Shown here piece by piece: positions 1 through 18,171 of a stretch of DNA of 20,000 nucleotides (positions are counted from its first letter, which is position 1; every line of letters begins with the position of its first letter). The stretch lies in the IMG/VR virus record IMGVR_UViG_3300025769_000088. One strand, given 5' to 3'. The DNA comes from an uncultured virus (IMG/VR IMGVR_UViG_3300025769_000088). Lineage: Duplodnaviria > Heunggongvirae > Uroviricota > Caudoviricetes. Under the pieces are notes generated by a model. It worked only from the letters and a program-made list of their open reading frames with translations. It searched no databases and was not told the origin of the DNA. A program made the position numbers and the translations under genes.

Positions 1-132
1 CTGTTGATTGTTCGTGCCGACAATCGCTCGCTGGCGATAGCCCGCGAACTGCATCTCTTTGAACATGTAATTGACTTCCTCACCCCCCGAATCCTGGGTG
101 AACTGGATGTCAGGATGGGTTGGGTATGTCAT
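1..132 (-). CDS. Distal tail protein (lambda gpM-like), 5' part; runs off the window
   Basis: Not in the ORF track. ATG at 132 overlaps the TMP stop (ATGA). Translates MTYPTHPDIQFTQDSGGEEVNYMFKEMQFAGYRQRAIVGTNNQQ; FAGYRQRAIVGTN resembles the gpM motif FGDGYxQRxxxGLN. Position directly after TMP fits. Confidence 0.7.
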   Translation of the reverse strand, partial: MTYPTHPDIQFTQDSGGEEVNYMFKEMQFAGYRQRAIVGTNNQQ

Positions 133-2969: not shown

Positions 2970-3433
2970 TACTTGAAAATCTTTCTGGCGTTCTTGATTA
3001 CTTCCAACGTGCCAAACTGAAGTGCTCTTTCGGCAAATCTCGGATAAGGAGTTCTGTCAGGAGGGGGAGCACTTCGAGGCTTAATGTTACCGACATTCAA
3101 ATCATTGATGTAGGGCAGACTGTTGCTGATCCAGACATCCTGTCCAGTACGTCGGCCCTTGATAGCAGCGTTCACTGCCACTTGTGCGGCTGCCCCAGAA
3201 GCCGACGCAGTGCTGCCGTATTCCCCAGGGGAATACGGCAGTCGAGTCACCGTAGAGGGACTGCCCAGGGAGCCGGTCCAGTTGCTGAGTGCCTGGCTGG
3301 TGTCGACCGGAGTGGTCGCGATGACTTCCTTCGCGATGGCACGTCCGGCCAACTCCACAATTCGGTTGACGGACTTTTCAACCTCCTCTGCCCTGCCGAT
3401 CATTTCAATTCTAAATCTTGCAGGACTAGCCAT
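2969..3433 (-). CDS. HK97 gp10-like tail completion/neck protein
   Basis: TPVDTSQALSNW and VWISNSLPYINDLN motifs typical of the family; stop/start overlap with TMP. Confidence 0.8.
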   Translation of the reverse strand: MASPARFRIEMIGRAEEVEKSVNRIVELAGRAIAKEVIATTPVDTSQALSNWTGSLGSPSTVTRLPYSPGEYGSTASASGAAAQVAVNAAIKGRRTGQDVWISNSLPYINDLNVGNIKPRSAPPPDRTPYPRFAERALQFGTLEVIKNARKIFK

Positions 3434-3788
3434 TAGAACTTCCTTTTATCTTACGGTTCTTCTTCGACTGCTTTTCCTGCCACTCCAAAAATAGTCCGTC
3501 CATTTTTCGAATGAGCTTCAGCATGAGATAAGACATCTCTTCGTCCAGATTCCATTCTTTGCAATAAGTGATGATCGAAGAGTATGGAATAGGTCCAGTG
3601 CTCATGCCTAGTTGCCTGTCAGGAAAAATTTCCCAGAAGGCGTCGTAGTAAATGCTCAGTCCTTGAAGCAGCTCAGGCTCATCGAGAAGGGCCGCAGGTA
3701 TCTCAGATTCATCTTTGTCCTGATACCTCATGTGCATCACTTCTCGATGCTTTCCATACGCCAGTTGCCACTTCAGGACTTCTAGGAG
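3426..3788 (-). CDS. Tail assembly chaperone gpT portion, reached by -1 frameshift (gpGT fusion about 284 aa)
   Basis: The frame stays open from the slippery site (LLEVLKWQLAYGKHREVMHMRY...) into the 3426..3740 ORF. PELLQGLSIYYDAFWEI-DRQLGM-GPIPYSSI is typical of gpT-type domains. Confidence 0.8.
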   Translation of the reverse strand, partial: LLEVLKWQLAYGKHREVMHMRYQDKDESEIPAALLDEPELLQGLSIYYDAFWEIFPDRQLGMSTGPIPYSSIITYCKEWNLDEEMSYLMLKLIRKMDGLFLEWQEKQSKKNRKIKGSSNG

Positions 3789-4279
3789 TTTCCCTCCATG
3801 ATTTCTAACATCTCATCCTTGAAGGCTGCCGCTTCTCCGCACAGCTCCATGATCGTCGTAAAGGCTTCCGGATAATCCTCCAGAAGCTTCGTCAGATTCT
3901 TTTCAGTGATCGGAAGCAGCTCACTCGCTTCCTCATACGGAGTTGCTATAGGAGCACCTTCGTCATTCAGAGTGTACGGCTCGATGCCGTCGCACCACTG
4001 CTCGTTCACCTTTGTCTGCCACCCGGCAACGACCGTTCGTGCGTAGCAGGTTCTTTGAATCGCCTTCAACGGCTCTTCCAGTCCCGGCGGGATTCTATTG
4101 CCGTGTGCCAGGCGTAGACGTCGCATGTGGGGCTGCAGCAGCTTCGAATGCAGTTTGTCATACTCTTTGTTGCCGCCGCCTGCTCGACGAAGCTTGACCT
4201 TCGTATCTTCGTCCAGTTCGAACCACGCTCCGTCCGCCTCTCGTGCAGGGTCCGTCCCGAAATTACTGTTCAATCCCAT
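3782..4279 (-). CDS. Tail assembly chaperone gpG (165 aa)
   Basis: Follows the tail tube gene; FGTD...GAWF...KLRRAGGGNKEY N-terminus; ends EGNS at the slippery site; SD AGGAG upstream. Confidence 0.85.
   Translation of the reverse strand: MGLNSNFGTDPAREADGAWFELDEDTKVKLRRAGGGNKEYDKLHSKLLQPHMRRLRLAHGNRIPPGLEEPLKAIQRTCYARTVVAGWQTKVNEQWCDGIEPYTLNDEGAPIATPYEEASELLPITEKNLTKLLEDYPEAFTTIMELCGEAAAFKDEMLEIMEGNS
3788..3794 (-). other. Programmed -1 ribosomal frameshift heptamer G GGA AAC
   Basis: X XXY YYZ heptamer in the correct phase just before the gpG stop (GAG GGA AAC TCC TAG); the -1 frame is open and joins the downstream ORF. Confidence 0.85.
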
Positions 4280-4304
4280 CTCAATCTCCTGTGTGCATCA
4301 CTCA

Positions 4305-4339
4305 ATAAAAAAGGCCCGGCCCTACAATGGACCGAGCCC
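4305..4339 (-). terminator. Rho-independent terminator after the tail tube gene
   Basis: RNA GGGCUCGGUCC-AUUGUA-GGGCCGGGCCU (11-bp stem including G-U pairs) followed by a U-run. Confidence 0.85.
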
Positions 4340-4360
4340 GAAGTCCTCGTCGAAGTTCAA

Positions 4361-5905
4361 TTAGCTGCCTGCGGCTGTCGGCAGGTAGTCAAAGAACACG
4401 GCAGCCAGAATATGATTCAAAGTGCTGGCGACATCAATGCCGTTGGCACCTTCACTGGTCAGTGGAAGCTTGATCGGAGAATCTGCTTCAACGTTTGCCA
4501 GTGCTCCTGAGCCAGCCAGTAGTGGGATGTCGAAACTGATTCCCGTGTTCTGGTGGTACAAACTGAAGTCGACCGTCAGGTCACTGTTGGATCGCACCGA
4601 GGCCAATGCCGAAACATTGGCAAAGAAGGCTTCGAGTTCCAGCTGAACTCCGAAGTCACCTTCCGACATCTCAAAGGCACCTGTCGTACCAATCGCGAGG
4701 TTGCGCGACAGGTTATTGTTGATCGTCAATGTCAACTCACCGATCTGAGCAAACAGTGCCGCAGGATTACTGTCCGTCGAAGAGACCACATTGATCTTGA
4801 TGCGAGGCACGCTCGACGAAGAGTTGAAGGCGTCTTCAGCAACCAAGGCAGGACGAGTGCCTGACTTGATGTTGCCTGCTGTCACCGTCTCATGATCAAG
4901 ACCCATGAACGCGGCGTCGACAGTGACCTTCTCGGCCTCAGGAATGTTCAGAGCCAATTCACTGCAGACGGCACCCGTGATGTACTCGGCCTGCACATCT
5001 CCTGGGCTGGAATCGTTCGGAGCACCGAGCTGGCGCTCGACCTGAAACGTCTTGCGAACGATCAGTGATCCGACCTCGTTCTTGAGCAGTCGCCCCAGGA
5101 AGATGCGGATTGTTTTGCCGGTGCCGTCATCGGTGACCATCGTGCCTTGCGTCTTGTCGAAGGTCATGACGTTGGCAGCCACCGATCGAACGCGGGCATA
5201 GCCATTGTTCGCTGCCGTCGCGAATTGTTCGGCGGTCAGGTCACCACCAATGTAGACCATCTCTCCCGGCAGAATGCCGAGTTCTGTTAGGTCTTTGGTG
5301 GTCGTAATCAGCGTTGGAAATCCGGACGTTGTCAGGATTTCGGCATCGCCAGAAGCGAACTCGTGTCCGACCACAACCAGGCTGGCGTCAGTCGGAGGAG
5401 TCTCGTCGACAGTTACGTCTTCATCGACAACCACCGTGGTCGTTGTAGAGCTGGCAACTGTGAACAAGGCATTATTCGCAGAATTAGTGAAGCCCGACGC
5501 AAGTACCAGGTCGTTGACCAGGAAATCGTCACCATCGGCATCGACCGTGAAAGTCTCGGTGGCTGCATCCACATCCGTGATCTCGGTGTCGTTGGCGTTG
5601 ATCTTCTCCGCCTTACGCCGGGCAACCGAGTACAGGTAGCCTTCCAGCAGAGCAAACATGTTGCTGTAGGTCAGGTCGCTGTTGAACCCAGCCTTGGCCT
5701 CAACGTCGACCACCGGTCCTTTGCGGCCCATGCGGTCAGACTTGATCGGCTTACGTGGAGCCGTGGTAATATCACCCCCGACGTCGTCGTAGCCGTTCGG
5801 CTCGTAAGGAGTCCATACAGGAGTTCCTGGCAAAACACCGATCGAGTCTTCGACCGCGATGCTGAGCTGTGTTTTATTACTGGAGATCGCTTGTAGTTCA
5901 GCCAT
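4361..5905 (-). CDS. Major tail tube protein (514 aa) with inserted beta domains
   Basis: N-terminus (AVEDSIGVLPGTPVWTPYEPNGYDDVGG, ARKPIKSDR-like segment) resembles large siphovirus tail tubes. Lies between the terminator and chaperone genes and is followed by a terminator. Confidence 0.85.
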   Translation of the reverse strand: MAELQAISSNKTQLSIAVEDSIGVLPGTPVWTPYEPNGYDDVGGDITTAPRKPIKSDRMGRKGPVVDVEAKAGFNSDLTYSNMFALLEGYLYSVARRKAEKINANDTEITDVDAATETFTVDADGDDFLVNDLVLASGFTNSANNALFTVASSTTTTVVVDEDVTVDETPPTDASLVVVGHEFASGDAEILTTSGFPTLITTTKDLTELGILPGEMVYIGGDLTAEQFATAANNGYARVRSVAANVMTFDKTQGTMVTDDGTGKTIRIFLGRLLKNEVGSLIVRKTFQVERQLGAPNDSSPGDVQAEYITGAVCSELALNIPEAEKVTVDAAFMGLDHETVTAGNIKSGTRPALVAEDAFNSSSSVPRIKINVVSSTDSNPAALFAQIGELTLTINNNLSRNLAIGTTGAFEMSEGDFGVQLELEAFFANVSALASVRSNSDLTVDFSLYHQNTGISFDIPLLAGSGALANVEADSPIKLPLTSEGANGIDVASTLNHILAAVFFDYLPTAAGS

Positions 5906-6405
5906 CAGGTCACCTCGTCAAATTGAAATTCGGTAAGGAAGTCCACGCGAAATACGAGACCACCTCTGATTTTACCAATTACTTGAGTCCGAGGATTCTT
6001 GAAGAAGACCCCGCCAGAAGTACTCGTCCCTTTGAACGCCTTGCCTGCCATTGTAGCCAGTGCCATTGCCAGAAAAAGCCCATCTCCAGCAGGCACATTG
6101 ATCTGCAATGTCAGTGTTCCGGTGTGCTCGAATCGATTCGCTCCCGAGTTGCGACCTACGTTTGTCTGACGACTGGTAGCAGGTTGCCATAGCAGTTGAG
6201 CCCAGGGGGCGATGTTGTTTCCTGTTGCCGACTCGCGGTCGCGAACTACCGCATCTACTTTGTTCGGAAATTGAATGGGGACGCCGTCAATGACAAGGTC
6301 TCCATCCACATGGTCCAGCGTCCAGGTTGCTTCAGGGTCGTGTTCCCAGACACTCAGCAGCTGGAGCACCGATTGGTCGTATGCTTGTGACTCAGAGGCA
6401 GGCAT
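5905..6405 (-). CDS. Tail terminator protein (probable start 6405, MPASESQAY)
   Basis: TGATG overlap with the upstream gene and SD GGAGGT. PWAQL...RFEHTGTLTLQINVPAGDG...F pattern; immediately precedes the tail tube gene. Confidence 0.7.
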   Translation of the reverse strand: MPASESQAYDQSVLQLLSVWEHDPEATWTLDHVDGDLVIDGVPIQFPNKVDAVVRDRESATGNNIAPWAQLLWQPATSRQTNVGRNSGANRFEHTGTLTLQINVPAGDGLFLAMALATMAGKAFKGTSTSGGVFFKNPRTQVIGKIRGGLVFRVDFLTEFQFDEVT

Positions 6406-6830
6406 CAGGCTTCTACCTCCAGCCAATAAAACAGAACTGTTCCACCAGGATTTGGTCCGTAGACTGATTTAATGGCCCATGTCTTTTCTCCCTGCTGAAC
6501 TGAAGTAAAATCGTCGAGCGTGACTCCTAACGCCGCTGGTCCTTTAGTGAGCCAGCCATCCGTCTGCGTCTGAATCAAATCCTGCAGAGCCTGCTGAATA
6601 AACTGCCCTTGAACCGTTGAGCGTATCTCTCCGATGGATACCGCGTTGGCAGTGACGAAGTGTCCCGCCGGAGCATTTGCCAGGTCCCATACTTCTACAG
6701 CAGGCTTTCGATGAGGAGCATCATTATCCACGACCGTTCGAGGAATCTTCAGGAAGGATACTTCCTGCCCAAACTCGTCGACCAACTCATTCACCAGCTC
6801 AGTGAATTCTGTGTAGTCGAACGTGGCCAT
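6405..6830 (-). CDS. Head closure/stopper protein (probable start 6830, MATFDYTEF)
   Basis: MATFDY..F..LV.EFGQ.V N-terminus and W.I..V..PNPGGTVLFY.LEV C-terminus typical of head-closure proteins; synteny supports the call. Confidence 0.7.
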   Translation of the reverse strand: MATFDYTEFTELVNELVDEFGQEVSFLKIPRTVVDNDAPHRKPAVEVWDLANAPAGHFVTANAVSIGEIRSTVQGQFIQQALQDLIQTQTDGWLTKGPAALGVTLDDFTSVQQGEKTWAIKSVYGPNPGGTVLFYWLEVEA

Positions 6831-6907
6831 GGAACGCTTTCTTAAAGGAGGCAGCCCGACAAGCAACAGCCAAGAAGCAGCCTGACTGCCTCCCTCACAC
6901 AGGAATC

Positions 6908-7468
6908 TTAAATTCTAGTCATTCGTTTGGAGCTGGTACGTGCCAGAAACTTTTCAAGTAACAGATCAGCTGCCGGGTATTCTTTGAAGACCGAGTCGCG
7001 AACCAGAGAGGACTTCTGACGCAGCCCTCCGTTCTTCATGAACTTCTCACGCTTCTCGATCGGCCCAATTTTCTTTTCGACTTCTTCAACTTCGAGACCT
7101 TGTGTTGAAGGATCAGCAATCAGCGCGGCAGTGATGGCCCTCACAGCGTACTCGCCAACCGCCTTCTGTAACTCTGGTGGAATCTCGACATTCGAATAGA
7201 GCAGCCGCTGATGCCGGTCGTAGACATTGTACCTGGGCCAGGACAACTCGTTGGTGTTATCGTTTTTGTCGCCGATCCACTTTTCACTGAACCGTTTTTC
7301 GATGTAGTCCGTCGCTTTGATCAGGATGTATTCCTTCTCAGCCTCGGTCGCCAGAGCATCCCACGCGGTATTGCCGCCTCGGTCATCGAAGTAGGCTTGG
7401 ACGAACGCCACGGTGGTGTAGGAGTTGGCATTTGCCACACCCGTCCCATCTTCGACGATCATTGTCAT
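6908..7468 (-). CDS. Head-tail adaptor (DnaT-like phage family)
   Basis: MIVEDGTGVANANSY, LIKATDYIE, LSWPR, IPPELQKA, EKKIGPIE and YPAADLLLEKFL are hallmark motifs of this adaptor family. Confidence 0.85.
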   Translation of the reverse strand: MTMIVEDGTGVANANSYTTVAFVQAYFDDRGGNTAWDALATEAEKEYILIKATDYIEKRFSEKWIGDKNDNTNELSWPRYNVYDRHQRLLYSNVEIPPELQKAVGEYAVRAITAALIADPSTQGLEVEEVEKKIGPIEKREKFMKNGGLRQKSSLVRDSVFKEYPAADLLLEKFLARTSSKRMTRI

Positions 7469-7509
7469 GGCGTTCTCCCAAGCTGATTACTTCGTTGACT
7501 GCTTCGCGA

Positions 7510-8070
7510 TTACGCCGTGCGGTTAAGCCCAGGGAAGGCTTCGTCCACTTCCTTGCGAGTGACGTTGGGAACGACTTCTCGCAGACCAGTGATGTTGACT
7601 TCGCCGTTCGACTTCCAGTACTTGTCCTCGTCGCGAGGAAGCTCTTCGAGCGTCTTGCGAAGTTCAGCGACAGGTCCGGGGACTTCCCATGGGTTGGGAG
7701 TTGTGGCAGCCTCTTCCAACTTCTCTGCATCCTGCTTCACGACTTCTTTGACCGGCTCTTCTTTGACCGGCTCTTCTTTGGCCTCTGGTGCCGCCGCTCC
7801 TCGTTTCTTCCAGCCGCTGGACAGCATTGTTTCCAACTGACCCTTGTCGCACCAGGATTCTTTACCTGATTCGATGTGCGTGATGGCAATCTGATTGGTG
7901 TGGTCGTTGATTGCGATTTCTGCCTCTGACAAAATCGGAGGATTCGGATCATCGACAATGACCCAGACCGGCTTGCCTTCTCCGTCCGTTTGAGACGTGA
8001 ACGCTTTCAGCTGACCTTCGCTACAGCGAAGTGTCTTTTGGCCGTTGCTGATGAAGATGATTTTCGACAT
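7510..8070 (-). CDS. Hypothetical head-associated protein (186 aa) with duplicated N-terminal module, Lys/Glu/Pro linker and small C-terminal domain
   Basis: SD ACAGGA. Sits between the capsid and adaptor genes. The C-terminal DEDKYWKSNGEVNITGL...VTRKEVDEAFP resembles small domains often seen at this locus. Confidence 0.65.
   Translation of the reverse strand: MSKIIFISNGQKTLRCSEGQLKAFTSQTDGEGKPVWVIVDDPNPPILSEAEIAINDHTNQIAITHIESGKESWCDKGQLETMLSSGWKKRGAAAPEAKEEPVKEEPVKEVVKQDAEKLEEAATTPNPWEVPGPVAELRKTLEELPRDEDKYWKSNGEVNITGLREVVPNVTRKEVDEAFPGLNRTA
7745..7780. repeat. 15-nt tandem repeat (TCTTTGACCGGCTCT x2.4) encoding KEEPVKEEPVKE
   Basis: Directly visible in the sequence. Confidence 0.85.
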
Positions 8071-8091
8071 CTTAAATTCCTGTGTGAATTG

Positions 8092-8138
8092 AAAAGTAAA
8101 AAAATATGCCGGGCAGGCAGAGGTTGCCTGCCCGGCAT
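8092..8138 (-). terminator. Rho-independent terminator after the major capsid gene
   Basis: Perfect 14-bp stem ATGCCGGGCAGGCA/TGCCTGCCCGGCAT (8106-8138) with a 5-nt loop, followed on the minus strand by ATTTTTTTACTTTT. Confidence 0.92.
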
Positions 8139-8158
8139 CAATTTTCAGTCAGCGGAGA

Positions 8159-9337
8159 TTACTCTCCACGAACAATCTGACATCCGAGGTTGCCATCAAC
8201 AAGAACACCGCCGACCAGGCAGTCCATCGAGATCGTCGATGTCTTGGTCGTGATATTGTAGTCACGGATCAGCCGGATGCTGAGGTCTTCGTAGGTGACC
8301 ACTGCACCAGAAGCTTCCTGCGGGATTTCCAGAGGAACCGCAGCGAAAGCGAAGGCACGAGGATTGAACGCAGCACCTTGCAACGTTCGAGTTCCGGCAC
8401 TGCCGTCGTAGACCGTCATTGCAGTCGCGTCGGCAATCGCCGTTCGAATCGGCTCCACGATGGTCAGCGTACCAGCGCTTGAGCTGGCAGTATTGTCTGC
8501 CGCCACAACCACGTTTCCGTAGCCAGCGATGTAGACAATGTCGCCTTCCTTGAAGGTTCCTGAAACCTCATCGCCAGTGTCGTAAGGGATGCTGGTGGCA
8601 CCCACAGCAACAGCGGCAGAGGTCAGAGCCGTATCCATCGTACCTGAGGTGTGGACCGTCGAGCTGTCGACGTTCTGGTCCATGAAGTGGCTCATACTCA
8701 TGAGCTGGCCCATACGAGCCTGCTCCAGAGCCGTACCGCCGTCACCACGTTTGTCAGCTTCGACAAAGCTGTCGATCGACAAGAGAGCCTGCTTGTAAGC
8801 CGGGCTCACAAGCTGAACACGTTCTGCCATCGGAACCTTCTGCTCATCGAGCTTGCGGTTGATAGCTGCCAGGTGACCGATGGTCGTTGGCAACGCGCCG
8901 GGAAGAACAGCAGTGCTGCCATCCCACGAGGTTTCGCCGGTTCCGCCGATGTTCGGAAGATGCTTCAGCTTGGTCAACGCATAGGCGTCGATCTGCTCGG
9001 CCATCTTCAGGACGTTCGGAGCGAGCAGCTGCTCACTGAAACTCTGCAGGTCCAAGGTCCACTGCTTCGAGGTGACCGCGAACGACAAGTCGTAGTGCTT
9101 TTCCAGCACCAGGTTGACGTTCGATTCAGTGATGTCGTCAACGGTGATCGAGGAAGTGAATTCCCGAACCGTTCCCGAGCCACGTCGGCGAATACGAATC
9201 GTATCGCCGATCATCTCGTTGCCGGTGAAGTTCGCTTCGTAGCGACGATCGAACAGCTTGACGCCGACGAGCGTGGATCGCAGAAGCATCAGTGCTTCAC
9301 GAGCAATGTCGTCAATCGTCAGAATAGTATTCGCCAT
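8159..9337 (-). CDS. Major capsid protein, P22 coat (gp5)-like (392 aa)
   Basis: MANTILTIDDIAREALMLL, IGDTIRIR, AEQID, AFAFAAVPL and SIRL...DCLVG motifs plus an insertion domain (FKEGDIVYIAG). Strong SD, follows the scaffold gene and is followed by a terminator. Confidence 0.9.
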   Translation of the reverse strand: MANTILTIDDIAREALMLLRSTLVGVKLFDRRYEANFTGNEMIGDTIRIRRRGSGTVREFTSSITVDDITESNVNLVLEKHYDLSFAVTSKQWTLDLQSFSEQLLAPNVLKMAEQIDAYALTKLKHLPNIGGTGETSWDGSTAVLPGALPTTIGHLAAINRKLDEQKVPMAERVQLVSPAYKQALLSIDSFVEADKRGDGGTALEQARMGQLMSMSHFMDQNVDSSTVHTSGTMDTALTSAAVAVGATSIPYDTGDEVSGTFKEGDIVYIAGYGNVVVAADNTASSSAGTLTIVEPIRTAIADATAMTVYDGSAGTRTLQGAAFNPRAFAFAAVPLEIPQEASGAVVTYEDLSIRLIRDYNITTKTSTISMDCLVGGVLVDGNLGCQIVRGE

Positions 9338-9368
9338 GGTAACTCTCCCCTAATCAGGATTTAGATGA

Positions 9369-9395
9369 GGTGAGAGTGTTGGCGAACACCCCACC
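9369..9395 (-). promoter_or_regulatory. Stem-loop between scaffold and capsid genes (possible mRNA stabiliser or processing site)
   Basis: RNA GGUGGGGUGUU-CGCC-AACACUCUCACC forms 11 bp with one bulge; no U-tail. Confidence 0.45.
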
Positions 9396-9396
9396 G

Positions 9397-10212
9397 TCAA
9401 TAAGGCTTCTTCTTTTTGGAAATCTCTGCTTGGCGATACGCTTCGAACTCTTCGAAGCTCATCTTGCTTGTGTCCACGCCACCAGTCGGTCCACCGGAAT
9501 TTGATCCAGTGGCATTCGAACTCTTCGAAGGTGCCCACCAGTGAGCACATGGTTCTTTCTGTGCTTCCAGCCAGTCTTCCACGGAGTAAGGACTGACTCC
9601 GTCCTTTCCGATCTTGACGACTCCGTCCTTGTCACGAATTTCCTGACGTCCAGTTTCCTCATTGAAGTGATTGAAGACTCCTTCGGCCCGAGACATGACG
9701 TCCGGAGTTGCCGCCTTCTGGAATCCCTCTGAAGACGCTGTCACAGACAGCACTTCCACTTCACGCATCTTCTTGACGTACTTGTCTTTGGCTTCCTGCT
9801 CTGCAGCCTTGACGGCTGCCACAGCATCCTGCTGCTCTTTGAGCTTGCCTTCATAACTCTTGATCAGTTCCTGGTTCTTCTCCTGGAACACTTCCTGCCA
9901 CTCACCCTTCTGGATGCGTTGCAGCGTTTCGTCGCCTGCCGTCTTCTGCTGCAGCTCGATGAGACTTTTGATCCCGTCTTCGCCGCCCAACTGTCCAAGA
10001 ATGCTGTTCGCTTTCTTGAGGTCTTCCGCAGCCTTCCGTTTCTCTTCGAGAATGGTGTCTCGGTTCTGTTTCAGGGGAGCCGTCGCTGCTTCAACCGCAG
10101 CGTCGATTTTTGCCTGAATGTCGTCCTCTTTCGGCGGGTCGCCGTCGTCAAAAGGTCGAGTCAGTTTTCGAGAAAATTTACACGTCGAGATCGAGAAAAG
10201 AGTCGTCATCAC
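9397..10212 (-). CDS. Capsid scaffolding protein
   Basis: Coiled-coil, Lys/Glu-rich sequence (IQAKIDAAVEAATAPLKQNRDTILEEK), HWWAPSKSSNATGS linker and C-terminal SKMSFEEFEAYR capsid-binding helix. SD AGGAGG; start at GTG 10212 or ATG 10209. Confidence 0.85.
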   Translation of the reverse strand: MMTTLFSISTCKFSRKLTRPFDDGDPPKEDDIQAKIDAAVEAATAPLKQNRDTILEEKRKAAEDLKKANSILGQLGGEDGIKSLIELQQKTAGDETLQRIQKGEWQEVFQEKNQELIKSYEGKLKEQQDAVAAVKAAEQEAKDKYVKKMREVEVLSVTASSEGFQKAATPDVMSRAEGVFNHFNEETGRQEIRDKDGVVKIGKDGVSPYSVEDWLEAQKEPCAHWWAPSKSSNATGSNSGGPTGGVDTSKMSFEEFEAYRQAEISKKKKPY

Positions 10213-10296
10213 AACCCTCCTGGGTTCGTGGTGTTAGCCCCTTCTGGGACTGCGGAAAATCGACGATCGGTCACAGACTTCACGTCACAGTCATTT

Positions 10297-10347
10297 ACTA
10301 TAGAACGAGCTGAGCAAATAACTCAAGGGCCATTACTCATTTTTTTT
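10297..10347 (-). promoter_or_regulatory. Putative sigma70-type promoter for scaffold/capsid genes
   Basis: TTGAGT (10326-10321), 18-nt spacer, TATAGT (10302-10297), with an upstream A8 tract (UP-like) in a 137-nt intergenic gap. Confidence 0.55.
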
Positions 10348-10349
10348 GA

Positions 10350-11447
10350 TTACTCAAAACCTTCCCTAACCTGCAGCTCTGCAAGGGTTAAGGGTCTGCC
10401 GGTAGGGCCATCAAAAAGCTTACTGAAGTCCAGCGTCCCGGTCTCCAGTAATCGGAACCTGCGTGGCCCTAAGATGTCCTTCTGAACATCTGCAGGTTGT
10501 TTCGTGAGCCACTGCTCGTAAGAGGTCTGCCTGGGCAGGATGCCGTCCACTATTGCGGACACTAAAGAACGGCAACGAAAATGAATTGGGGGTCGTAAAG
10601 TGGGCGGCTCCAGTCGCGGAAGCCCAGGGTCGAGGGTGTCTTCCATGCCGAACAGCGGAGCGACTCTGCCGTCCAGCCCGCGACAACGTGAACTGGTTTT
10701 TTCGTCCAGCACTGCCGACCAGACGAGACCGCTGATGCGTTTCTTGTTCTTTACCCACACCTTCTCACGCACGGACTGTGTGACTTCGACGGCTGCCGTC
10801 TTGACGACGCCGTCGACCTTGTCACGCAGCCTCGCCGAGATGCCGTCTGAAAAGTCGCTGTTCGGAGTACCTCGAATGCTCTCTGCAATGTCAGTGATCG
10901 GACGGGAGTCTCGTAAGCCCAGACGAATTTCCTGGGCAACCTGTGCCGTGTCGTTGGCTGCCAGCAGGTCGAACCAGTCGTCAAGCGTCTTTCCCCGGAG
11001 AGGCGTCCGCTTCACCAAGGTCTTCACCGACGATTCCGGAAATGAAAAAGTCCGGAAGGGAGCAAGTGTCGCAGGAGAATCTCTCAGCACCCGGCGCACA
11101 GCATTCTGCTGCCACGTTGCTTCCCAGATCGCCAGTGCCACCATCTCCTTGTTGATCAGGCTTTTCGATTCCTGCCACGACTGCATCCTTTCTCTGGAGA
11201 GTTCTTTGATGACTCGCTCGACCTTCGGCTGCTGACTGACGTAGTTCGCCGCCGTAATGAGACCAATCCTTTCCAACTCCAGAATGATCCTGGCAATGAA
11301 CCGGTCTTCGTTCTCGTTCATCTGCCGGACGACGCTGCGTGTCGCTCCATTAGCGACTCGCAGGATGCCTAGCTGGTGACCGATCAGCAGGTCTTGCAGG
11401 AAGTCTGCTCGCGACTCCGAATTTCCTTCTTCGACGTAATCAGCCAT
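10350..11447 (-). CDS. Minor head morphogenesis protein (SPP1 gp7 / Mu gpF family)
   Basis: WSAVLDEKTSSRCRGLDG, RPPIHFRCRS and SYEQWLTKQP..VQ..ILG motifs. Confidence 0.92.
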   Translation of the reverse strand: MADYVEEGNSESRADFLQDLLIGHQLGILRVANGATRSVVRQMNENEDRFIARIILELERIGLITAANYVSQQPKVERVIKELSRERMQSWQESKSLINKEMVALAIWEATWQQNAVRRVLRDSPATLAPFRTFSFPESSVKTLVKRTPLRGKTLDDWFDLLAANDTAQVAQEIRLGLRDSRPITDIAESIRGTPNSDFSDGISARLRDKVDGVVKTAAVEVTQSVREKVWVKNKKRISGLVWSAVLDEKTSSRCRGLDGRVAPLFGMEDTLDPGLPRLEPPTLRPPIHFRCRSLVSAIVDGILPRQTSYEQWLTKQPADVQKDILGPRRFRLLETGTLDFSKLFDGPTGRPLTLAELQVREGFE

Positions 11448-12228
11448 TCTCTTCCTGCTTCTTGAGTTCTTCCGTCAGGTCAGGCAGATTCTCAACTTCA
11501 ACGTCGATGATCTTCTCGTGCCCGGCTCGCCACTCCTCAATGCTCTGGGCTACCGGAGCCACGGCGAGGATGCCGGTGTGCTTGACTTCGATTTCTCCAG
11601 AGACCTCTACCGAGACTTTCTCGCGATTCGCACCCCATTCCTCAGGATGACGTCGAGCCAGCAGATGAGCAGCGGCTCGCCAGTCGTCTTTCGCTGCCTC
11701 GTGAATCATGGTCGTCAACTCATTCGAGTTGATCCCTTCCGCCGTCAACATGCCTTCGTAGTACGTCATGCAGTTGAGCTGATGTTCCGTGACTTCCAGG
11801 TCAGCGTTCTTGATGTACTTCTCCAGCATCTTCTGGCCGAGCTTCAGCCAGCCTCGATGCGTGTTGGAATCCACTCCCAGTTGTCGAGCCACAGCGACTC
11901 GGCTGCAGCCTTTCAGGATCAGCCTGAACGCCTTACGCATGAACCAGGGAGTCAGCAGGCCGTCTACCGGAACGTCCTGCCCTATCGTGGACAGGTCCGC
12001 AATGCGAGCCGTCGCCAATCCCCCGATACGCTGAGCCATCTCATCGGCCACAGAGTCATTCGAAAAGGTGGACGCAATCATCTCCTGCAACTCGTTCAGG
12101 TTCTCCGTCTGAGTTTCAGGCGGCTTGCTGAAGATTTGCTTTTCGAGATGCTGACGAACAGTCAGTGTCGGAACGTTACGTCCCGGTCCCGGCTTCGCCA
12201 GCTCCTTCGCTATCGCTGTTGCTGACAT
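11440..12228 (-). CDS. Terminase small subunit-like HTH protein (probable start 12228, MSATAIAK)
   Basis: HTH (LILKGCSRVAVARQLGVDSNTHRGWLKLG), DWRAAAHLLARRHPEEWG motif and beta/C-terminal GILAVAP...EEW segment. SD GGAG before ATG 12228; overlaps the portal 3' end by 53 nt. Confidence 0.6.
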   Translation of the reverse strand: MSATAIAKELAKPGPGRNVPTLTVRQHLEKQIFSKPPETQTENLNELQEMIASTFSNDSVADEMAQRIGGLATARIADLSTIGQDVPVDGLLTPWFMRKAFRLILKGCSRVAVARQLGVDSNTHRGWLKLGQKMLEKYIKNADLEVTEHQLNCMTYYEGMLTAEGINSNELTTMIHEAAKDDWRAAAHLLARRHPEEWGANREKVSVEVSGEIEVKHTGILAVAPVAQSIEEWRAGHEKIIDVEVENLPDLTEELKKQEENG

Positions 12229-13732
12229 CTTCGGTCTCCGCCAATCGGCCAATCAGCCCGAACGCCGTGTCGATGTCCGACGTTGAGCCGTTGAGTTCTT
12301 CTTCGTACGTCAGGTGTGTGAGCTGACGTTTCCGCATCTGAGCGTGAATCGTCTCGTTCGACAGCGGCACGCCGTTGCGAATGGCCAGGTCTTTCGCCTG
12401 CATCAGGAACAACAGTTCCTGGTAGCCCATCTGACCTTCGGTGAAGTTAACGTTCGGGTTGAACGTGATCTCTTCCACTTCGCTGTCAGACATGCCGGAC
12501 AAACGTCCGACCATACGCAAGGCTTCCTGCAATCCGGCACCTGCGTTCTTGACCAACGCCTTCACCGAGACCTGCTTCATTCCCTGACGTATTCGCAGTG
12601 CCTCGGCAGCTTCAGCCCCCTTCGAAGCAGACTCAAGTAGATGTCCAGCCTCACCGTAAAATCGACTGTATTCTGAGTCGATGGCTTTGAGCTGCAGTGG
12701 GATTCCCTGTCCGTCGATGTCGAGGTATCCAACCTTGGCTTCGGAGTCTGGCAGTCCCCAGATGGAGCTGCCTCCGATTTCGGTGGGGATGTCGTCTTCC
12801 GCCACACCAGTGACCCATGCCTGCGGATCACCTTTGATGTACAGCGAGCGATTTGCATCCGCACTTTTTCGGAAGATGGCAAGTGCTCTCTTCGCCATCG
12901 GCCACGCTGGGACAGGTCCATAGGAAAATCCAATGTCTGTGGCGTTGATAATGGTCAGCGGAATTTGATCGAATGCCGTCCCGAATATCTCTGGTCGCAT
13001 CCAGCCATCAGTGGTGGTTTCCGGAGTAATGACGATTTCAACTTTTCCATCCTTGATCTTCTTCCAGACTCGTACCCAATACTCGTCCTCGAAGAGTCGC
13101 AGCTCTCGATACATCATGACTTCAACATGCTTGAAGTCATCGTGCTCGTCCGGAGCCATGCCGTGCTCGCCGAGCACCACCATCTGTGCTTTTTCGCCTT
13201 CGCATTTCTCGGAAAGTCTCCAGTTGCGAATAGTTTCCGCCGTGTACTGGCAGAGGTGCATCTGGGCTCCCTGCAGGCCGAGTCCGCCCTTCACGTCGGC
13301 CAGGAGTCCAATCCGTCCTGTGTAGAACAACTCCTGTGTGACGAGCTGCCACAGCTCTTCGATCGAGTCGCCGTCACCGGTCGCCTTCTTCGCCAGGTAA
13401 CTCAACTTCTCCGGCAGGTTGTATTCCGGCGGCTTCTCATGGACCAGGCCCATGATGCCCTGGATCATCGGTGCGGTGATCTCGGGAAAATCGGCAAACG
13501 TCTTGTAGAAGTCGTACCTGGTCTGCAGCCGGTTCGTCAGCTTGTCGTTGATCGACTGCTCGGGACCAGGCTGCATGCCTGGGGGCGGCGGCAGGTAATC
13601 GCGAACATTCTCTGCGGCGAGCACCGCAGGCTCGCCCTCGATGACGTCACGCACCTTCTTCCAGATCGGTGAGATTCGATCGTAGGATGGGTGCGTCGTT
13701 TCAACCTTCGGACGTTCGACTTCGTCAGCCAT
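12176..13732 (-). CDS. Portal protein (DUF4055-type, 518 aa)
   Basis: HPSY...WKKVRDVIEGE, YLP, TGRIGLLAD, YTAETIRNW and DQIPL motifs; directly after TerL with a TAATG overlap. Confidence 0.9.
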   Translation of the reverse strand: MADEVERPKVETTHPSYDRISPIWKKVRDVIEGEPAVLAAENVRDYLPPPPGMQPGPEQSINDKLTNRLQTRYDFYKTFADFPEITAPMIQGIMGLVHEKPPEYNLPEKLSYLAKKATGDGDSIEELWQLVTQELFYTGRIGLLADVKGGLGLQGAQMHLCQYTAETIRNWRLSEKCEGEKAQMVVLGEHGMAPDEHDDFKHVEVMMYRELRLFEDEYWVRVWKKIKDGKVEIVITPETTTDGWMRPEIFGTAFDQIPLTIINATDIGFSYGPVPAWPMAKRALAIFRKSADANRSLYIKGDPQAWVTGVAEDDIPTEIGGSSIWGLPDSEAKVGYLDIDGQGIPLQLKAIDSEYSRFYGEAGHLLESASKGAEAAEALRIRQGMKQVSVKALVKNAGAGLQEALRMVGRLSGMSDSEVEEITFNPNVNFTEGQMGYQELLFLMQAKDLAIRNGVPLSNETIHAQMRKRQLTHLTYEEELNGSTSDIDTAFGLIGRLAETEDVSNSDSEGAGEAGTGT

Positions 13733-15312
13733 TATCTGCCTCGAATTTTCTTGTTAACCATCTTGCCGGTCCTACTGTACAGGCGATAACGTACCTCATC
13801 CGCTACGTGATCCTCAGCCTCGGTGTTGCAATCTTCTGTGTTCTTATCGTCTCTCGGCAAGACCGGCACCGTACGAATAAACGCATCACACGTATCAAAA
13901 ACATACAGTCCAGGATGCTCTCTGGGTAGTCCGTCCTTTTTGAACGACGCCTGCAACCGGTTCCGAATTCGCTGCCAGCCCAGGATACGGCTGCCTGCTG
14001 ATTTGTCAGCGCGAGTCCAGCGGACGCCCATGTTGGACATCGCCTTGGCGATCGACTGCCCGTTCGTCGTGTCGTAAATGGACGTGTCCGCCGGTCCTGG
14101 GTGAATCGTCTTGCCCATCAACATCGGATGCTGCGTCTGCAGCTCTTTGATGCCGTTGGCGATCTCCCGGTCAGTCAGCATCAGCCCTTTGTTTTCTTCA
14201 CCCTTCTTGCACATGTACCACTCGTGGATGCGAAACAGGTCGCCCCGCACGGTCGACACGCGGAAGCCTGCTGCGTTGATGTAATCCGTGCCGTCAGACT
14301 CTGCCCACCAGCCCACCGAGGATGGTTTGGACGAGCCCCAGTCGAACGACCTGTCGATTCTCCACGACTTCGGAATCTTAAAAGGCTCCACGATGTGGAC
14401 AGTCGAATCCCACAGGTCGTCGAACATCCCACCAGCGACAACGTCCCATGAACCATGGAGCCATGCTTTCAACTGACTCGGTGAGCTTGCCGATGCGGCA
14501 ATTGTGGCTTTGTAGCCAGGGTCAGCGTCGAGCAGTAAGAAGTTCTCGTCGATGTCGCCGTGAATGGCAATACGTTCCGGCTGGTACATCGGCTTGCCCT
14601 GGTTGTCCAGGATCGCTCGACCCTTCTCGTCGGTCATGACGTCGCCGCCACAAATCTCGCCGAATCGCTTACCTTCTTTAACCGGCAACTTGTACCTGGC
14701 TTTTACCCAATTATGTCCACATCCGTGCGGATTTGTCGTTGCACGAATCATCTTCGGAACCTGTGGGTTCGTCGTTCGATTCGTCGAGAGCATGACGACA
14801 AAGCAATCCTTCGACGGCCACGTCGTGAGTTCTTCCCATCCGATGAACGGATAGTTATGGCCGTGGTACTTGTTGTAGTCGGTAGGCACTCGCATGTGCC
14901 CGAAGTAGAGTCGCTCTCCAGTCGGCCATTCCCAGAAGTGCTTCCCTTTGTTGTACGTCGCCTCAGGGAAGATTTCCGTGAACCACTTATCCGCCTTGCC
15001 GATGATGTCTTCCAGCTCGGGATACGTCCGGCGAAAGATGATGCCACGCCAATCCTTGCCCCACTTCCCGATGTGCTGAGCGAAGCTCATCAGCAACGCA
15101 TCGGTCTTACCTGGGCCTCGTGTTCCGGCGTAACAAACTTCCTGGATCGCACATTCCATGAACCCTTTCTGACTGCCCGGCATGGGAGCCCAGGTGAGCA
15201 GGACGATGTTCCCGTCCGGGTCGCGGGAGTACGGCCTAAGCTGCCCGTCGACACGTCCCCAGTGAACTTCGGGCGTGAAGCTCTGGGTAGGCTGTGTGGC
15301 TGTTGCTGTCAT
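13732..15312 (-). CDS. terL: Terminase large subunit (526 aa)
   Basis: Walker A YAGTRGPGKT, FRRTYPEL, Walker B FIGWEELT, coupling motif RATTNP.G.GH.WVK, and nuclease motifs SFDWG and EDHVADEVRY. Confidence 0.96.
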   Translation of the reverse strand: MTATATQPTQSFTPEVHWGRVDGQLRPYSRDPDGNIVLLTWAPMPGSQKGFMECAIQEVCYAGTRGPGKTDALLMSFAQHIGKWGKDWRGIIFRRTYPELEDIIGKADKWFTEIFPEATYNKGKHFWEWPTGERLYFGHMRVPTDYNKYHGHNYPFIGWEELTTWPSKDCFVVMLSTNRTTNPQVPKMIRATTNPHGCGHNWVKARYKLPVKEGKRFGEICGGDVMTDEKGRAILDNQGKPMYQPERIAIHGDIDENFLLLDADPGYKATIAASASSPSQLKAWLHGSWDVVAGGMFDDLWDSTVHIVEPFKIPKSWRIDRSFDWGSSKPSSVGWWAESDGTDYINAAGFRVSTVRGDLFRIHEWYMCKKGEENKGLMLTDREIANGIKELQTQHPMLMGKTIHPGPADTSIYDTTNGQSIAKAMSNMGVRWTRADKSAGSRILGWQRIRNRLQASFKKDGLPREHPGLYVFDTCDAFIRTVPVLPRDDKNTEDCNTEAEDHVADEVRYRLYSRTGKMVNKKIRGR

Positions 15313-15932
15313 TTTGGCTGTTCATTTTTTTTTAACTGGAGAGCGGCCTGCAGTATCGGACAGCCCGCGTAAAAGCGAAATATGGTTCTCTTTTCTGCCA
15401 GTGCCACTTGCTGAGCAAGTGGTGCGGGAATTTGTTGTGAGGGGACGGCTGTTCGATCCCCGACGTTTCTCGGAGGCTCGTTCAGCAGTGCTTTTACACA
15501 AACATCTTCTCTAAAGAACAGCAGTGCGGCAACGAGATCATTCTGCAGTTGTTCAAAACGACCTACGAATTGACAGGCGGAGTAGTCACTTCCGAACATG
15601 CCTTCAAAGCTTCTCCCTACAAAGCCCGGTTCTATTTTCTGCAGGACGTTTTCAAGAAACTGCGAGAACGTGTCGGCTCTGCAGGCGTTGTCGATCTCAC
15701 AGTCTTTCCAGCCATGAGAGACTCGGTGACGCCAGTACGATTCGTACCATGTCAAGGGATGTCGAACAAACCCGAAGGCGGGCATGTCTGGCCCTTTTCC
15801 TGAAGACCAGTGGTACTGCTCGTCGTTCCCCAACTCCCAAGAGTTGGGGCAACTGGCTCGGATGGCTGTCGTGCAGTACGTGGTTCCGGTCTTTGCCATT
15901 CGCAAAAACCGACAGTTCCGAAGAATCAGCAT
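15309..15932 (-). CDS. Sulfotransferase family 2-like protein (207 aa)
   Basis: 5'-PSB-like FLRMAKTGTT, 3'-PB-like FGFVRHPLTWYESYW and FVGRFEQLQNDL motifs in the order expected for carbohydrate sulfotransferase-like proteins. Confidence 0.75.
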   Translation of the reverse strand: MLILRNCRFLRMAKTGTTYCTTAIRASCPNSWELGNDEQYHWSSGKGPDMPAFGFVRHPLTWYESYWRHRVSHGWKDCEIDNACRADTFSQFLENVLQKIEPGFVGRSFEGMFGSDYSACQFVGRFEQLQNDLVAALLFFREDVCVKALLNEPPRNVGDRTAVPSQQIPAPLAQQVALAEKRTIFRFYAGCPILQAALQLKKNEQPK

Positions 15933-16813
15933 ACCTGCTTTTTGCCATTTCTGTCTTTGAACAGGTGCCCCATCTTGACCGACCAGTCAATGGCGAAATC
16001 GATGCCCCGAGAATTCAGAGCGTATCCCCAGTTCATGTCAGTGCCTTTGAGGCCGCCATAGGTACGACCTATGCCAACTTCGCGAATGGCATCCGTACGA
16101 GTCAGCCACAGTCCCATGTGCCCAGCTCCGATGGTCTCGACGCCTCGCCTCTTCTCCGGAAGGTTAATCGTAGAAATTTTCAGTGCAAACTGAGCCCCGA
16201 CACGAGCATGTACTTCAAAGTCCACAGAGATCGAACTTTTAGCTCCACGATAAATGAAATCACGTCTGTCGTTGCATTGGCCGATTACCGTGCCAATGCT
16301 CTCATCCTGAATGACGTGGTAAAGCTTCTCGAAAGAATCACTGGGAATGACAACGTCATCTTCCAGGTTCAGGCACAGCGGCAACTTCTGATCAATCAAC
16401 TCTTCGTAGATGTGCCGATAAAAAGCATCGCATCGAGCGCTGAGGGCTTGGCAATTGTGCTGAAGATGTGAGGGAACTTCGTAGTTCCTGTCTTCAACAA
16501 TCGTGTAGCTGTCAATCTCCGCCTGACAGAACGCCAGAAGCCGCTGCGAGAATTTCGGGCTGTTCCCGTTATCGTAGACCAGCAAGTGGCTGCGGTGCAG
16601 TGGTAGTCTTCCCAATGACCTCTTCCAGTCCGCGAAGCAGAACGCCCTTCCTGCCATTGGGCAGACAACATTGATGTCGATGGATTTCTTCCGGCTCTTC
16701 TTCTCTTCAACGGTCTTTATCAGGCCGATGTCGAATTCATCAAGCATGGACAGTCCGGAGTTTCCCGACTTTCCGCTGTTGCCGTTGTAGTTGAAGTTGA
16801 AGGCGTCTTCCAT
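15926..16813 (-). CDS. Glycosyltransferase, GT-A fold / GT2-like (295 aa)
   Basis: INVVCP first strand, LLVYDNGNS, DxD-like LNLEDDVVIP, GAGHMGLWLTR, GTDMNW (catalytic-base position) and IDWSVKMGH. SD GGAG. Confidence 0.8.
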   Translation of the reverse strand: MEDAFNFNYNGNSGKSGNSGLSMLDEFDIGLIKTVEEKKSRKKSIDINVVCPMAGRAFCFADWKRSLGRLPLHRSHLLVYDNGNSPKFSQRLLAFCQAEIDSYTIVEDRNYEVPSHLQHNCQALSARCDAFYRHIYEELIDQKLPLCLNLEDDVVIPSDSFEKLYHVIQDESIGTVIGQCNDRRDFIYRGAKSSISVDFEVHARVGAQFALKISTINLPEKRRGVETIGAGHMGLWLTRTDAIREVGIGRTYGGLKGTDMNWGYALNSRGIDFAIDWSVKMGHLFKDRNGKKQVC

Positions 16814-16814
16814 G

Positions 16815-17147
16815 TTAGTACTCCAAGGTATGCATCGAAGTCAGAGAGCCCTGCACCGCAGTCCCGCCGGTCGTCAAGGTGATGACCATGACGTCGCCTG
16901 TCACGTCACCAGCCATTTCAGGCAGCTCCAAGGGACCAGGTCCCGCCTGAGTGACCGGCACACTGAGAACTTCCACGCCGTCGATCGTGATCGTGAGACG
17001 ACCTGGAGTCGTCGTCAGCGTCTTGTCGTAGCCGAACAGCAAAAAGTGCAGCGCGACTCGCTTGTTCGCCGGAGGCGTGATGGTGATCACCGTGGAAGTG
17101 TTGTCCGCTGCTTCGGCGGTGGTCCAGACTTGTCCTGCTTTGGGCAT
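16815..17147 (-). CDS. Hypothetical Thr-rich beta-strand protein (110 aa), possibly virion-associated
   Basis: Strong SD AAAAGGAG; 20 of 110 residues are Thr; alternating beta pattern; stop is 1 nt before the GT start. Confidence 0.65.
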   Translation of the reverse strand: MPKAGQVWTTAEAADNTSTVITITPPANKRVALHFLLFGYDKTLTTTPGRLTITIDGVEVLSVPVTQAGPGPLELPEMAGDVTGDVMVITLTTGGTAVQGSLTSMHTLEY

Positions 17148-17212: not shown

Positions 17213-17710
17213 TCAGTTTTTCATTTCGATTTCCAGCACATCTTTGGCCCTATCCATCTGAACCACGTACCGAGTGCTTCCTGCAGGTATCCTCCGGAGA
17301 CTGAATACAACGGGAACTTCGTGCCCCTTCTTATGAAGAATGGAGCAACGAACGATCTGCACCGGCTTGGAAAGACCTTCTCGCTTAGCTGCCTCTTCAA
17401 TGCCTCTGTGATGACTTGCCTGGTATTTCTCAGGGATCAGGAAATTCAATCCCCAGCCCACCGCCTCTTCTTGCCTGTATCCTGTCATTTCTTCAGCGGC
17501 TTTATTCCAGTCTGTGATAATGCCGTTAGAAGTTGCCGCAATCGTGGCCGTGTCGCTTTCCGCAATGGCTGCAGCAATCAACATTGCCTGGCCCAGGGCC
17601 AGGCGTTGTTGTTCTCTCATCTGAACGGTGAATGTCGCAATGGCAATGACCAACAGCAGTCCTACTGACAACAGTGCCCAGGATAGACTGTTTCTATTTT
17701 TCATTGTCAT
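17213..17710 (-). CDS. Membrane-anchored stand-alone PAS domain protein (165 aa)
   Basis: N-terminal hydrophobic helix (about residues 11-28), then PAS S-box signature NGIITDWNKAAEEMTGYRQEEAVG..LNFLIPE and PAC-like LHKKGHEVPVVFSL. No output domain. Confidence 0.88.
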   Translation of the reverse strand: MTMKNRNSLSWALLSVGLLLVIAIATFTVQMREQQRLALGQAMLIAAAIAESDTATIAATSNGIITDWNKAAEEMTGYRQEEAVGWGLNFLIPEKYQASHHRGIEEAAKREGLSKPVQIVRCSILHKKGHEVPVVFSLRRIPAGSTRYVVQMDRAKDVLEIEMKN

Positions 17711-18035
17711 CTTTTTTCTCCAATTGAATTCCGATTTTCACGTTGCCTTTGGCCAGTTCGACAATGAGGTCGAGCAGTGACATTCCTCCAAATCCTGCCA
17801 GTAGGCCGACACCCATCAGCAGCCAGACACCTTCGTCCGAGGTGGAGTATTTTTGCCAGAGCAGCAGATTAACCAGCAACCCAAGCAACCCTGAGGTTAA
17901 CCCGGCTGAGACAACACTTCTCCAGGAGAGTTTTTTGCCAGACCGTAGCAGTTGGGCTAGTCCTGCACAGCTCGCAATCACAAATGTCCCGGCGAAAATT
18001 GTGGGTGGATCAGTGTAATTCACTTGGTGTCCCAT
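17694..18035 (-). CDS. Putative holin (3 TM, LydA/lambda S-like; probable start 18035)
   Basis: About 113 aa with three Gly-rich hydrophobic segments, a basic loop RSGKKLSWR, GLLAGFGGMSLLD motif and charged C-terminal tail EKKDDNEK. Confidence 0.65.
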   Translation of the reverse strand: MGHQVNYTDPPTIFAGTFVIASCAGLAQLLRSGKKLSWRSVVSAGLTSGLLGLLVNLLLWQKYSTSDEGVWLLMGVGLLAGFGGMSLLDLIVELAKGNVKIGIQLEKKDDNEK

Positions 18036-18134
18036 CTGTATTTGATCCTGTAACGTGGGTTTTGCCCTGAAAACACAGAAATGTGTTCTGCCCAAACACC
18101 TGTGGAATCCTATGGATGTTCGTGTCCGCGCACA

Positions 18135-18171
18135 ACAAGAGCCAGCAGGAGTCCTTCCTGCTGGCTCTTGT
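18135..18171. terminator. Perfect 16-bp hairpin, probably a terminator or boundary before the lysis/late block
   Basis: ACAAGAGCCAGCAGGA-GTCCT-TCCTGCTGGCTCTTGT; only a weak U-rich tail on the minus strand. Confidence 0.6.

Follow-up and report, generated by a model that had tools for sequence, protein, structure and literature searches.

A holin-like gene coupled to a membrane-anchored PAS gene in an uncultured siphophage: a candidate environment-responsive modulator of lysis

In the 20,000-nucleotide (nt) stretch of the uncultured virus IMGVR_UViG_3300025769_000088 that was analysed here (the window, part of a siphophage genome), a gene for a small three-helix membrane protein overlaps a gene for a protein consisting of one transmembrane (TM) helix and one PAS domain. 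The two genes are best explained as one translationally coupled unit carried by a lineage of uncultured siphophages. The product of the first is quite probably a holin, judged by its sequence. For the product of the second a role as an antiholin-like modulator (or pro-holin) dedicated to this P35-type holin is proposed tentatively, as a possibility that falls somewhat short of an even chance. The pair is a new version of the holin-plus-modulator theme. A conserved TM-PAS protein that resembles FixL and DosP, has no output domain and is tied to a holin gene provides a testable candidate for environmental gating of lysis.

A preliminary description of this DNA had reported a three-TM, holin-like gene that overlaps a TM-plus-PAS gene by 17 nt, and the open reading frames (ORFs), hydropathy and domain searches bear this out (Table 1). 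In its longest form the upstream ORF extends over 17694-18095 from a TTG start. The ATG at 18035 was taken as the start since the homologues P0003 and P0004, and the copy in a different viral contig, L008, all begin there. A dual-start antiholin of the lambda S107 type was considered and ruled out, as the in-frame upstream TTG at 18095 is without counterpart in L008. In lambda, S107 is the holin S105 itself with an extended N-terminus, and it delays hole formation by binding S105. Unlike the protein under study it has no cofactor-type sensor domain, and the window pair lacks a conserved dual start (there is no upstream in-frame start in L008). Antiholins are encoded in or beside the gene for their cognate holin, and it is this position that the 17-nt overlap gives to the PAS gene, in L008 as well as in the window.

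Table 1. Features of the pair region and its surroundings (window positions)
Feature	Position	Strand	Basis and remarks
Holin-like gene, 113 amino acids (aa)	17694..18035	-	ORF, with start set by homologues; three hydrophobic segments and charged C-terminal tail; PHROG matches, hhalign, Atlas
TM-PAS gene, 165 aa	17213..17710	-	Membrane helix at the N-terminus, then a single PAS domain of FixL/DosP-like type; Pfam, TIGR00229, AlphaFold2
Coupling junction	17694..17721	-	Read directly from sequence: GGAG 17718-17721, 7-nt spacer, PAS ATG 17708-17710, holin-like stop 17694-17696; 17-nt overlap
Membrane helix of PAS protein, about residues 9-29	17624..17686	-	Kyte-Doolittle maximum 2.38, sole segment, within residues 6-32; helix in model at residues 3-51
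PAS domain, about residues 45-155	17246..17578	-	Pfam, TIGR00229, AlphaFold2 model, Foldseek
His100 codon	17411..17413	-	On F-alpha helix (model residues 94-109); aligned with FixL and DOS His; invariant in 8/8
orf110	16815..17147	-	Conserved all-beta protein, function unassigned; follows the membrane pair in window, L090 and L008
Perfect 15-base-pair stem, 5-nt loop, no T-run	18136..18170	-	Read from sequence; in 183-nt gap between HNH-like and holin-like genes

The first protein has the build of a class I holin: a size below about 150 aa, three membrane helices and a C-terminal tail that is hydrophilic and charged. By Kyte-Doolittle hydropathy (19-residue window, threshold 1.6) its hydrophobic segments lie at about residues 12-30, 40-60 and 69-92, and the tail from residue 93, ELAKGNVKIGIQLEKKDDNEK, contains 5 Lys and 6 Asp/Glu. 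The window protein matches PHROG holin families 785 and 6384 (E 1.2e-4 and 2.1e-4), as do P0003 and P0004, each independently (E ~1e-4), while for the L008 copy the PHROG match is to phrog_6384 only. When the family of the window protein (alignment A5) was compared by hhalign with an alignment of 10 sequences from cultured phages (A7, which includes PR4 gene XXXV for holin P35 and two annotated holins from Serbin and Klebsiella phages), the outcome was 93% probability with E 3.5e-7 over 95 columns. Small three-helix phage membrane proteins served as controls and gave 0.4% (a protein of contig L090) and 0.9% (the class I holin of phage Salva). The preliminary description had called the upstream gene holin-like, and these two kinds of search supply the homology.

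The 10-sequence profile was needed for the 93%, since against the single Vibrio phage 1.207.B sequence the profile of the holin-like protein reached a probability of only 34%; BLASTP with that Vibrio protein gave a 36-residue match only. Pairwise BLASTP with two Salva holins gave no match, and nor did tblastn of the holin-like protein against cultured phages. Those feature and structure neighbours in the Atlas that bear a Pfam family belong to holin superfamily III, with lead-level scores of 0.89-0.90. P35 and phrog_785 proteins are similar in length to the window protein, and P35 itself presumably has three membrane helices. On these comparisons the 113-aa protein is a probable distant relative of the PRD1/PR4 P35-type holin family (phrog_785). 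P35 is an experimentally characterised holin, as stated in the available text of PMC6356626.

The second protein is matched by PAS models only: Pfam PAS PF00989 (E 5.3e-12, residues 47-135), with PAS_9, PAS_8 and PAS_4, and NCBIfam TIGR00229 (9.7e-18). It ends 10 residues past the PAS domain and so has no covalent output domain, which agrees with the earlier statement that no kinase, GGDEF or helix-turn-helix output is present. The AlphaFold2 model (mean predicted local distance difference test score, pLDDT, 73.6) has PAS secondary structure. Among solved structures the best sequence matches are to R. meliloti FixL (4.1e-7), E. coli DOS (~1e-5) and DosP, and FixL, DOS and DosP also rank first when the model is searched with Foldseek, where 497 matches were obtained at E<=0.001, PAS folds matching widely. 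The suggestion that His100 stands in the register of the FixL heme ligand holds, as HMMER places it on the His of ‘PYRHEH-DGY’ in FixL (1d06) and on that of ‘DLRPAHPEY’ in E. coli DOS. We take the aligned FixL/DOS His and the corresponding FixL Arg to be the proximal His and distal Arg of the heme pocket. The kinship to FixL and DosP thus includes the F-alpha His and, in the window copy, the G-beta Arg, but these proteins carry a histidine kinase or cyclic di-GMP phosphodiesterase output and the window protein carries none. No PHROG family matched the PAS protein at E<=0.01, and with that no known antiholin or spanin family. Known antiholins are not one family, so the lack of such a match does not exclude antiholin function.

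A profile search showed the PAS protein to belong to a family of eight, 151-170 aa in length and 32-78% identical, all with the same helix-plus-PAS build. They are known only from metagenomic or viral contigs, the longest of which are 61.9-76.2 kb (P0001 76.2 kb, P0053 67.2 kb, P0154 61.9 kb). Among the best 150 matches from 1.84 billion representative proteins, full-length alignment was confined to P0053 and the PAS protein's own entry; the remaining 148 matches are to sensors of 406-5,490 aa, which align stretch-wise with 25-39% identity. In one genome each of 185,579 prokaryote species, tblastn matched 207 stretches, of which the best are generic PAS domains at ~30-38% identity, and no close homologue was found. 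A recent truncation of a host kinase, which would have undermined the earlier proposal, is not what these data reveal, given the eight-member family and no close cellular homologue. PAS domains appear rare in phages: tblastn of the PAS protein at E<=1e-3 against 50,697 cultured-phage records gave no match. [The nearest cellular PAS relatives (P0005-P0062) are giants, the largest reaching 5,490 aa. In each, 8-31 PAS stretches are matched, and the same FixL-like His and Arg recur in many of the stretches.]

Some of the kinase stretches matched by tblastn cover helix, linker and PAS domain together, for example in L011 (residues 1-116, 33%) and L017 (residues 7-134, 30%, with ‘LIPERYRDAH’). This suggests the ‘last membrane helix, linker and first PAS’ stretch of a hybrid kinase as the ancient source of the PAS gene. 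The same matches favour a reading in which the PAS protein mimics that part of a host hybrid kinase as a decoy or dominant-negative, heterodimerises with it and blunts host signalling, with the gene overlap being simply compact packing. PAS domains commonly dimerise, and the lack of an output domain would suit such a role. However, along the greater part of the PAS length no cellular protein was found above 31-38% identity, so that no specific target can be named. Further, a PAS gene whose product has diverged to 41% identity still has precisely the same overlap and spacing relative to the holin-like gene, and in L090, dealt with below, the two genes have been exchanged as a unit. Decoy action is on balance rather unlikely; were it the case, the phage would have in this protein a compact means of silencing a two-component sensor of its host.

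Evidence for conservation of the pair comes from one distant relative for which DNA is available, L008. Its holin-like protein is 56% identical to that of the window, its PAS protein 41% and its TerL 45%, the pair being therefore about as conserved as this core gene. The junction is the same as in the window, GGAG-N7-ATG with a 17-nt overlap. Retention of overlap and spacing at 41% identity argues for a shared function of the holin-like and PAS genes. (Contigs L001 and L002 are 100% identical to the window across the pair region.) Directly after the pair L008 encodes, at 2423-3461, a protein of 196 aa that has no family match and in which a serine-hydrolase-like motif, ‘AYSWG’, was noted by eye, and then an endonuclease of SNase-like type (phrog_452, 6.5e-11). 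The window has neither.

The closest TerL relative among the loci that lack the pair is L090, with TerL 85% identical and structural genes 76% identical at the nucleotide level. In the slot between its HNH-like gene and orf110 (L090:3750-4371) there is a non-homologous but similarly built pair. Its first protein, of 105 aa, has about three hydrophobic stretches by eye. The overlapping second gene encodes a 111-aa protein in which, also by eye, a single hydrophobic stretch precedes a C-terminal part that is charge-rich and heptad-like; this gene itself overlaps orf110 by ATGA. Neither slot protein matches a PHROG lysis family. The slot is an exchangeable two-gene membrane cassette, with the PAS version as one option among several. 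Such cassette swaps are typical of lysis genes, and the mosaic pattern fits lysis genes.

The genes between the pair and TerL raise the question of whether either member of the pair is lytic. The order pair, orf110, glycosyltransferase-like gene, sulfotransferase-like gene, TerL is common to the window, L008 and L090; L008 adds a PF20691 glycosyltransferase (8.5e-45) and a methyltransferase, and there is a weak EamA-transporter match (E 0.016). The three-helix and TM-PAS proteins might then be membrane parts of a downstream glycan- or DNA-modifying module that includes orf110 and the GT-A-like and sulfotransferase-like proteins. But L090 swaps the pair and keeps orf110 (78% nucleotide identity), the glycosyltransferase-like gene (69% over 192 nt) and the sulfotransferase-like ORF, which suggests that the pair is an independent cassette, and the holin-family homology is specific when set against its two controls. 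Membership of such a module is very unlikely.

For the antiholin-like role the following mechanism is proposed. The first gene would provide a class-I-type holin of the PRD1 P35 family, with its N-terminus predicted to be outside and its C-terminus inside the cell. A PAS domain without enzymatic or DNA-binding output could signal only by binding another protein. The likeliest target would be the holin made with it, contacted helix-to-helix in the membrane or at its conserved N-terminus or charged tail. When holes form would then depend on what the PAS pocket senses, and the invariant His100 on F-alpha, together with the FixL/DosP kinship, would point to a heme-borne gas or redox signal. What was observed is how the two genes are built and coupled, the homology of the first to holins, the PAS subtype of the second and how far the pair is conserved; physical contact, the effect on lysis timing and the cofactor are what we infer. 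The fully specified version, in which a heme-PAS antiholin acts as an output-less membrane gas or redox sensor that binds the P35-type holin and so gates the lysis clock by the oxygen or redox state of the cell, is unlikely.

Known antiholins answer to membrane energisation or to superinfection, and we know of none with a classical cofactor or ligand sensor domain. Post-translational control of lysis timing by a sensor domain is, to our knowledge, undescribed in any phage, and if the proposal is true it would be new for phages. In the open literature, which was the scope of the search (subscription journals fell outside it), no description was found of a PAS-domain antiholin, of an oxygen- or redox-controlled antiholin, or of such a pair. 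T4 RI acts via a periplasmic domain of its own fold and, unlike the window protein, has no cofactor-type sensor domain. Its delaying of hole formation by binding of holin T, and its response to superinfection, are like the role proposed here, as far as they are covered in the available text of PMC11413866. Among PAS sensors of phages, VqmA(Phage) of vibriophage VP882 is the nearest precedent. It reportedly governs the lysis-lysogeny decision, and does so as a soluble transcription factor with DNA-binding output on that switch, not as a holin-coupled membrane protein. The resemblance is in being a phage-encoded PAS receptor that links a lysis decision to a small-molecule signal (available portion of PMC8284805).

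The antiholin role advanced in the preliminary description is therefore supported in part: holin-family homology, conserved coupling and a PAS domain without output speak for it, and the lack of a nearby endolysin and the narrow occurrence of the pairing do not. Several further observations weigh on the same side. The direct holin scores of the 113-aa protein are weak, at ~1e-4 for PHROG and, for the Pfam Phage_holin_3_3/LydA-type family (PF16083), at E 0.072, below the cut-off. Profiles of both proteins found no match in 79/79 other TerL-related loci. The earlier expectation that the pairing would be conserved in related phages was thus borne out by the identical overlap in L008 and not by the remaining loci, and the pair is accessory in the clade. 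In the window itself Pfam and PHROG searches of the 25 proteins returned no endolysin or spanin family, the holin being the only lysis match. (The ORFs in the 3.4 kb added by the nearest record and in the rest of the 31-kb L090 contig, judged by size only, are tail-gene-like.) A scripted o-spanin lipobox scan found none near the pair, and as it also found none in the Vibrio control it is without weight.

Position next to the terminase is of no help. A lysis cassette just upstream of the terminase is present in Salva and in Vibrio phage 1.207.B, where the phrog_785 member (E 7.7e-28) is just upstream of TerL, between an amidase gene and an Rz-like spanin gene. The argument from that position holds for these two phages but was rejected for nearer relatives. 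In 20 of these (TerL ~47-55% identical), 0/146 ORFs within at most ~4.5 kb upstream of TerL matched a lysis PHROG at E<=1e-6, so that in this clade a terminase-adjacent position is no lysis marker. (The 146 were scanned out of 174 listed, the last ORF per locus, mostly TerL, and 8 ORFs of at least 573 aa being set aside.) A TerS gene is upstream of TerL in 16/20.

The flanks of the window gene, HNH-like and PAS genes with no endolysin seen, differ from those of its Vibrio counterpart. Endolysin adjacency is not obligatory for a holin, as the example of P1 LydA demonstrates. The genes for holin LydA and antiholin LydB lie side by side and have no linkage to the endolysin gene (available text of PMC9025707). 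The likeness to the window is that the gene for a small holin is directly followed by a separate one for a modulator, in an operon apart from the endolysin gene (same source). The LydA family PF16083 is also where the weak Pfam and Atlas leads of the window protein point. Unlike the membrane-anchored PAS protein, LydB is described in the available text of PMC9025707 as having no predicted membrane helix and no known domain, and the likeness is by description and not by sequence.

The Vibrio arrangement, in which the gene after the holin is Rz-like, also raises the idea that the TM-PAS gene stands where an i-spanin gene would follow that of a P35-type holin, and that its product helps to disrupt the envelope. 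In PRD1 the genes for P36 and P37 presumably come directly after gene XXXV, and the second L090 substitute, with its N-terminal hydrophobic stretch and heptad-like C-terminal part, could be seen in the same light. The PRD1 holin, in a further difference from the window pair, works with a muramidase and the Rz/Rz1-like lysis proteins P36 and P37, according to the available text of PMC6356626. A spanin role is nevertheless extremely improbable for the TM-PAS protein, as its C-terminal domain is a PAS fold in the AlphaFold2 model and not a coiled coil, and there is no spanin PHROG match.

The residues of the pocket also give less than the FixL alignment promises. Arg121 had been placed near the distal Arg, and HMMER does align it with the Arg of FixL ‘IDRVV’, but it is not a feature of the family, being present in 2/8 members and absent in 6/8. 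With the FixL-type distal Arg lost in most members, the sensing chemistry would not be that of FixL, and a FixL-type mechanism is unlikely for most of the family. Nor are the two residues diagnostic. In 822 PAS domains from the 151 best cellular matches, His is found at the His100 column in 325/634 aligned and Arg at column 121 in 300/468; being common across a large PAS subfamily, they do not mark heme binding as such. Heme binding by the PAS protein, predicted from sequence, remains plausible, at roughly an even chance. Cys122 (17345-17347), beside the former distal-Arg position, is kept in 7/8 phage family members where the cellular PAS column has mostly Val, Thr, Leu or Ile; it is a possible site of redox chemistry or of a disulfide.

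The side of the membrane on which the PAS domain resides is ambiguous, which likewise counts against the proposal. In 7/8 members the net charge of the N-terminal flank exceeds that of the C-terminal flank, which favours a periplasmic PAS domain, and the alignment with cellular hybrid kinases favours a cytoplasmic one, as it runs over the last membrane helix of these kinases and the first of their PAS domains, which is cytoplasmic. Heme b is unlikely if the location is periplasmic. The charge bias, and a possible Ala-Ile-Ala signal-peptidase site at residues 23-25 of the window copy, would put the PAS domain outside the cytoplasm, where it might be an independent, co-transcribed accessory beside a correctly called holin, e.g. 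a periplasmic or membrane ligand sensor for superinfection exclusion or another envelope role. Absence of the pair from the 79 other loci is compatible with that. Against it, the coupling architecture is conserved in L008, the family as a whole does not keep the Ala-x-Ala motif, and the PAS protein is without PHROG match. An independent accessory is distinctly unlikely.

All real genes of the window are on the minus strand. Pfam and PHROG searches identify tape-measure, tail chaperones, tail tube, P22-type coat, scaffold, portal, TerL and further structural genes. Toward TerL the minus-strand order is a 239-aa protein of unknown function, an HNH-like gene (90 aa), the pair (the membrane gene of 113 aa, then the PAS gene of 165 aa), orf110, proteins of 295 and 207 aa in that order, and TerL. 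The nearest record, G001, corresponds to window 1-13881 only, and is thus outside the pair region. The promoter and terminator scan reported 0 promoter-like sites and no gene-boundary terminator; it demands a T-run, so the stem-loop upstream of the pair went unreported. That stem-loop may be a transcript boundary or stability element.

The structure model of the orf110 product is of low confidence (pLDDT 62.7) and gave 0 fold matches at E<=0.001. Atlas neighbours of the 295-aa protein are GT-A glycosyltransferases. The 207-aa protein is sulfotransferase-like by eye, and its L090 counterpart has a faint PHROG match (E 0.037). This conserved trio upstream of TerL spans 15309-17147 of the window. 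In L008 the region 3465-8189 also has a second sulfotransferase-like gene, an S-adenosylmethionine methyltransferase, a ParB-like gene and the above PF20691 enzyme, a TET-associated glycosyltransferase. The sequences of the trio and the L008 additions hint at a module for DNA or glycan hypermodification.

After the portal gene, and overlapping it by 77 nt, a 270-aa protein is encoded at 11440-12252 that has a terminase-small-subunit match (phrog_4102, 3.1e-13), as against the phrog_4044 TerS upstream of TerL in most of the 20 relatives. The tail tube protein (4361-5905) is 514 aa in length, and the 266-position Phage_tube_2 model is stretched over its residues 10-483, which implies a large insertion.

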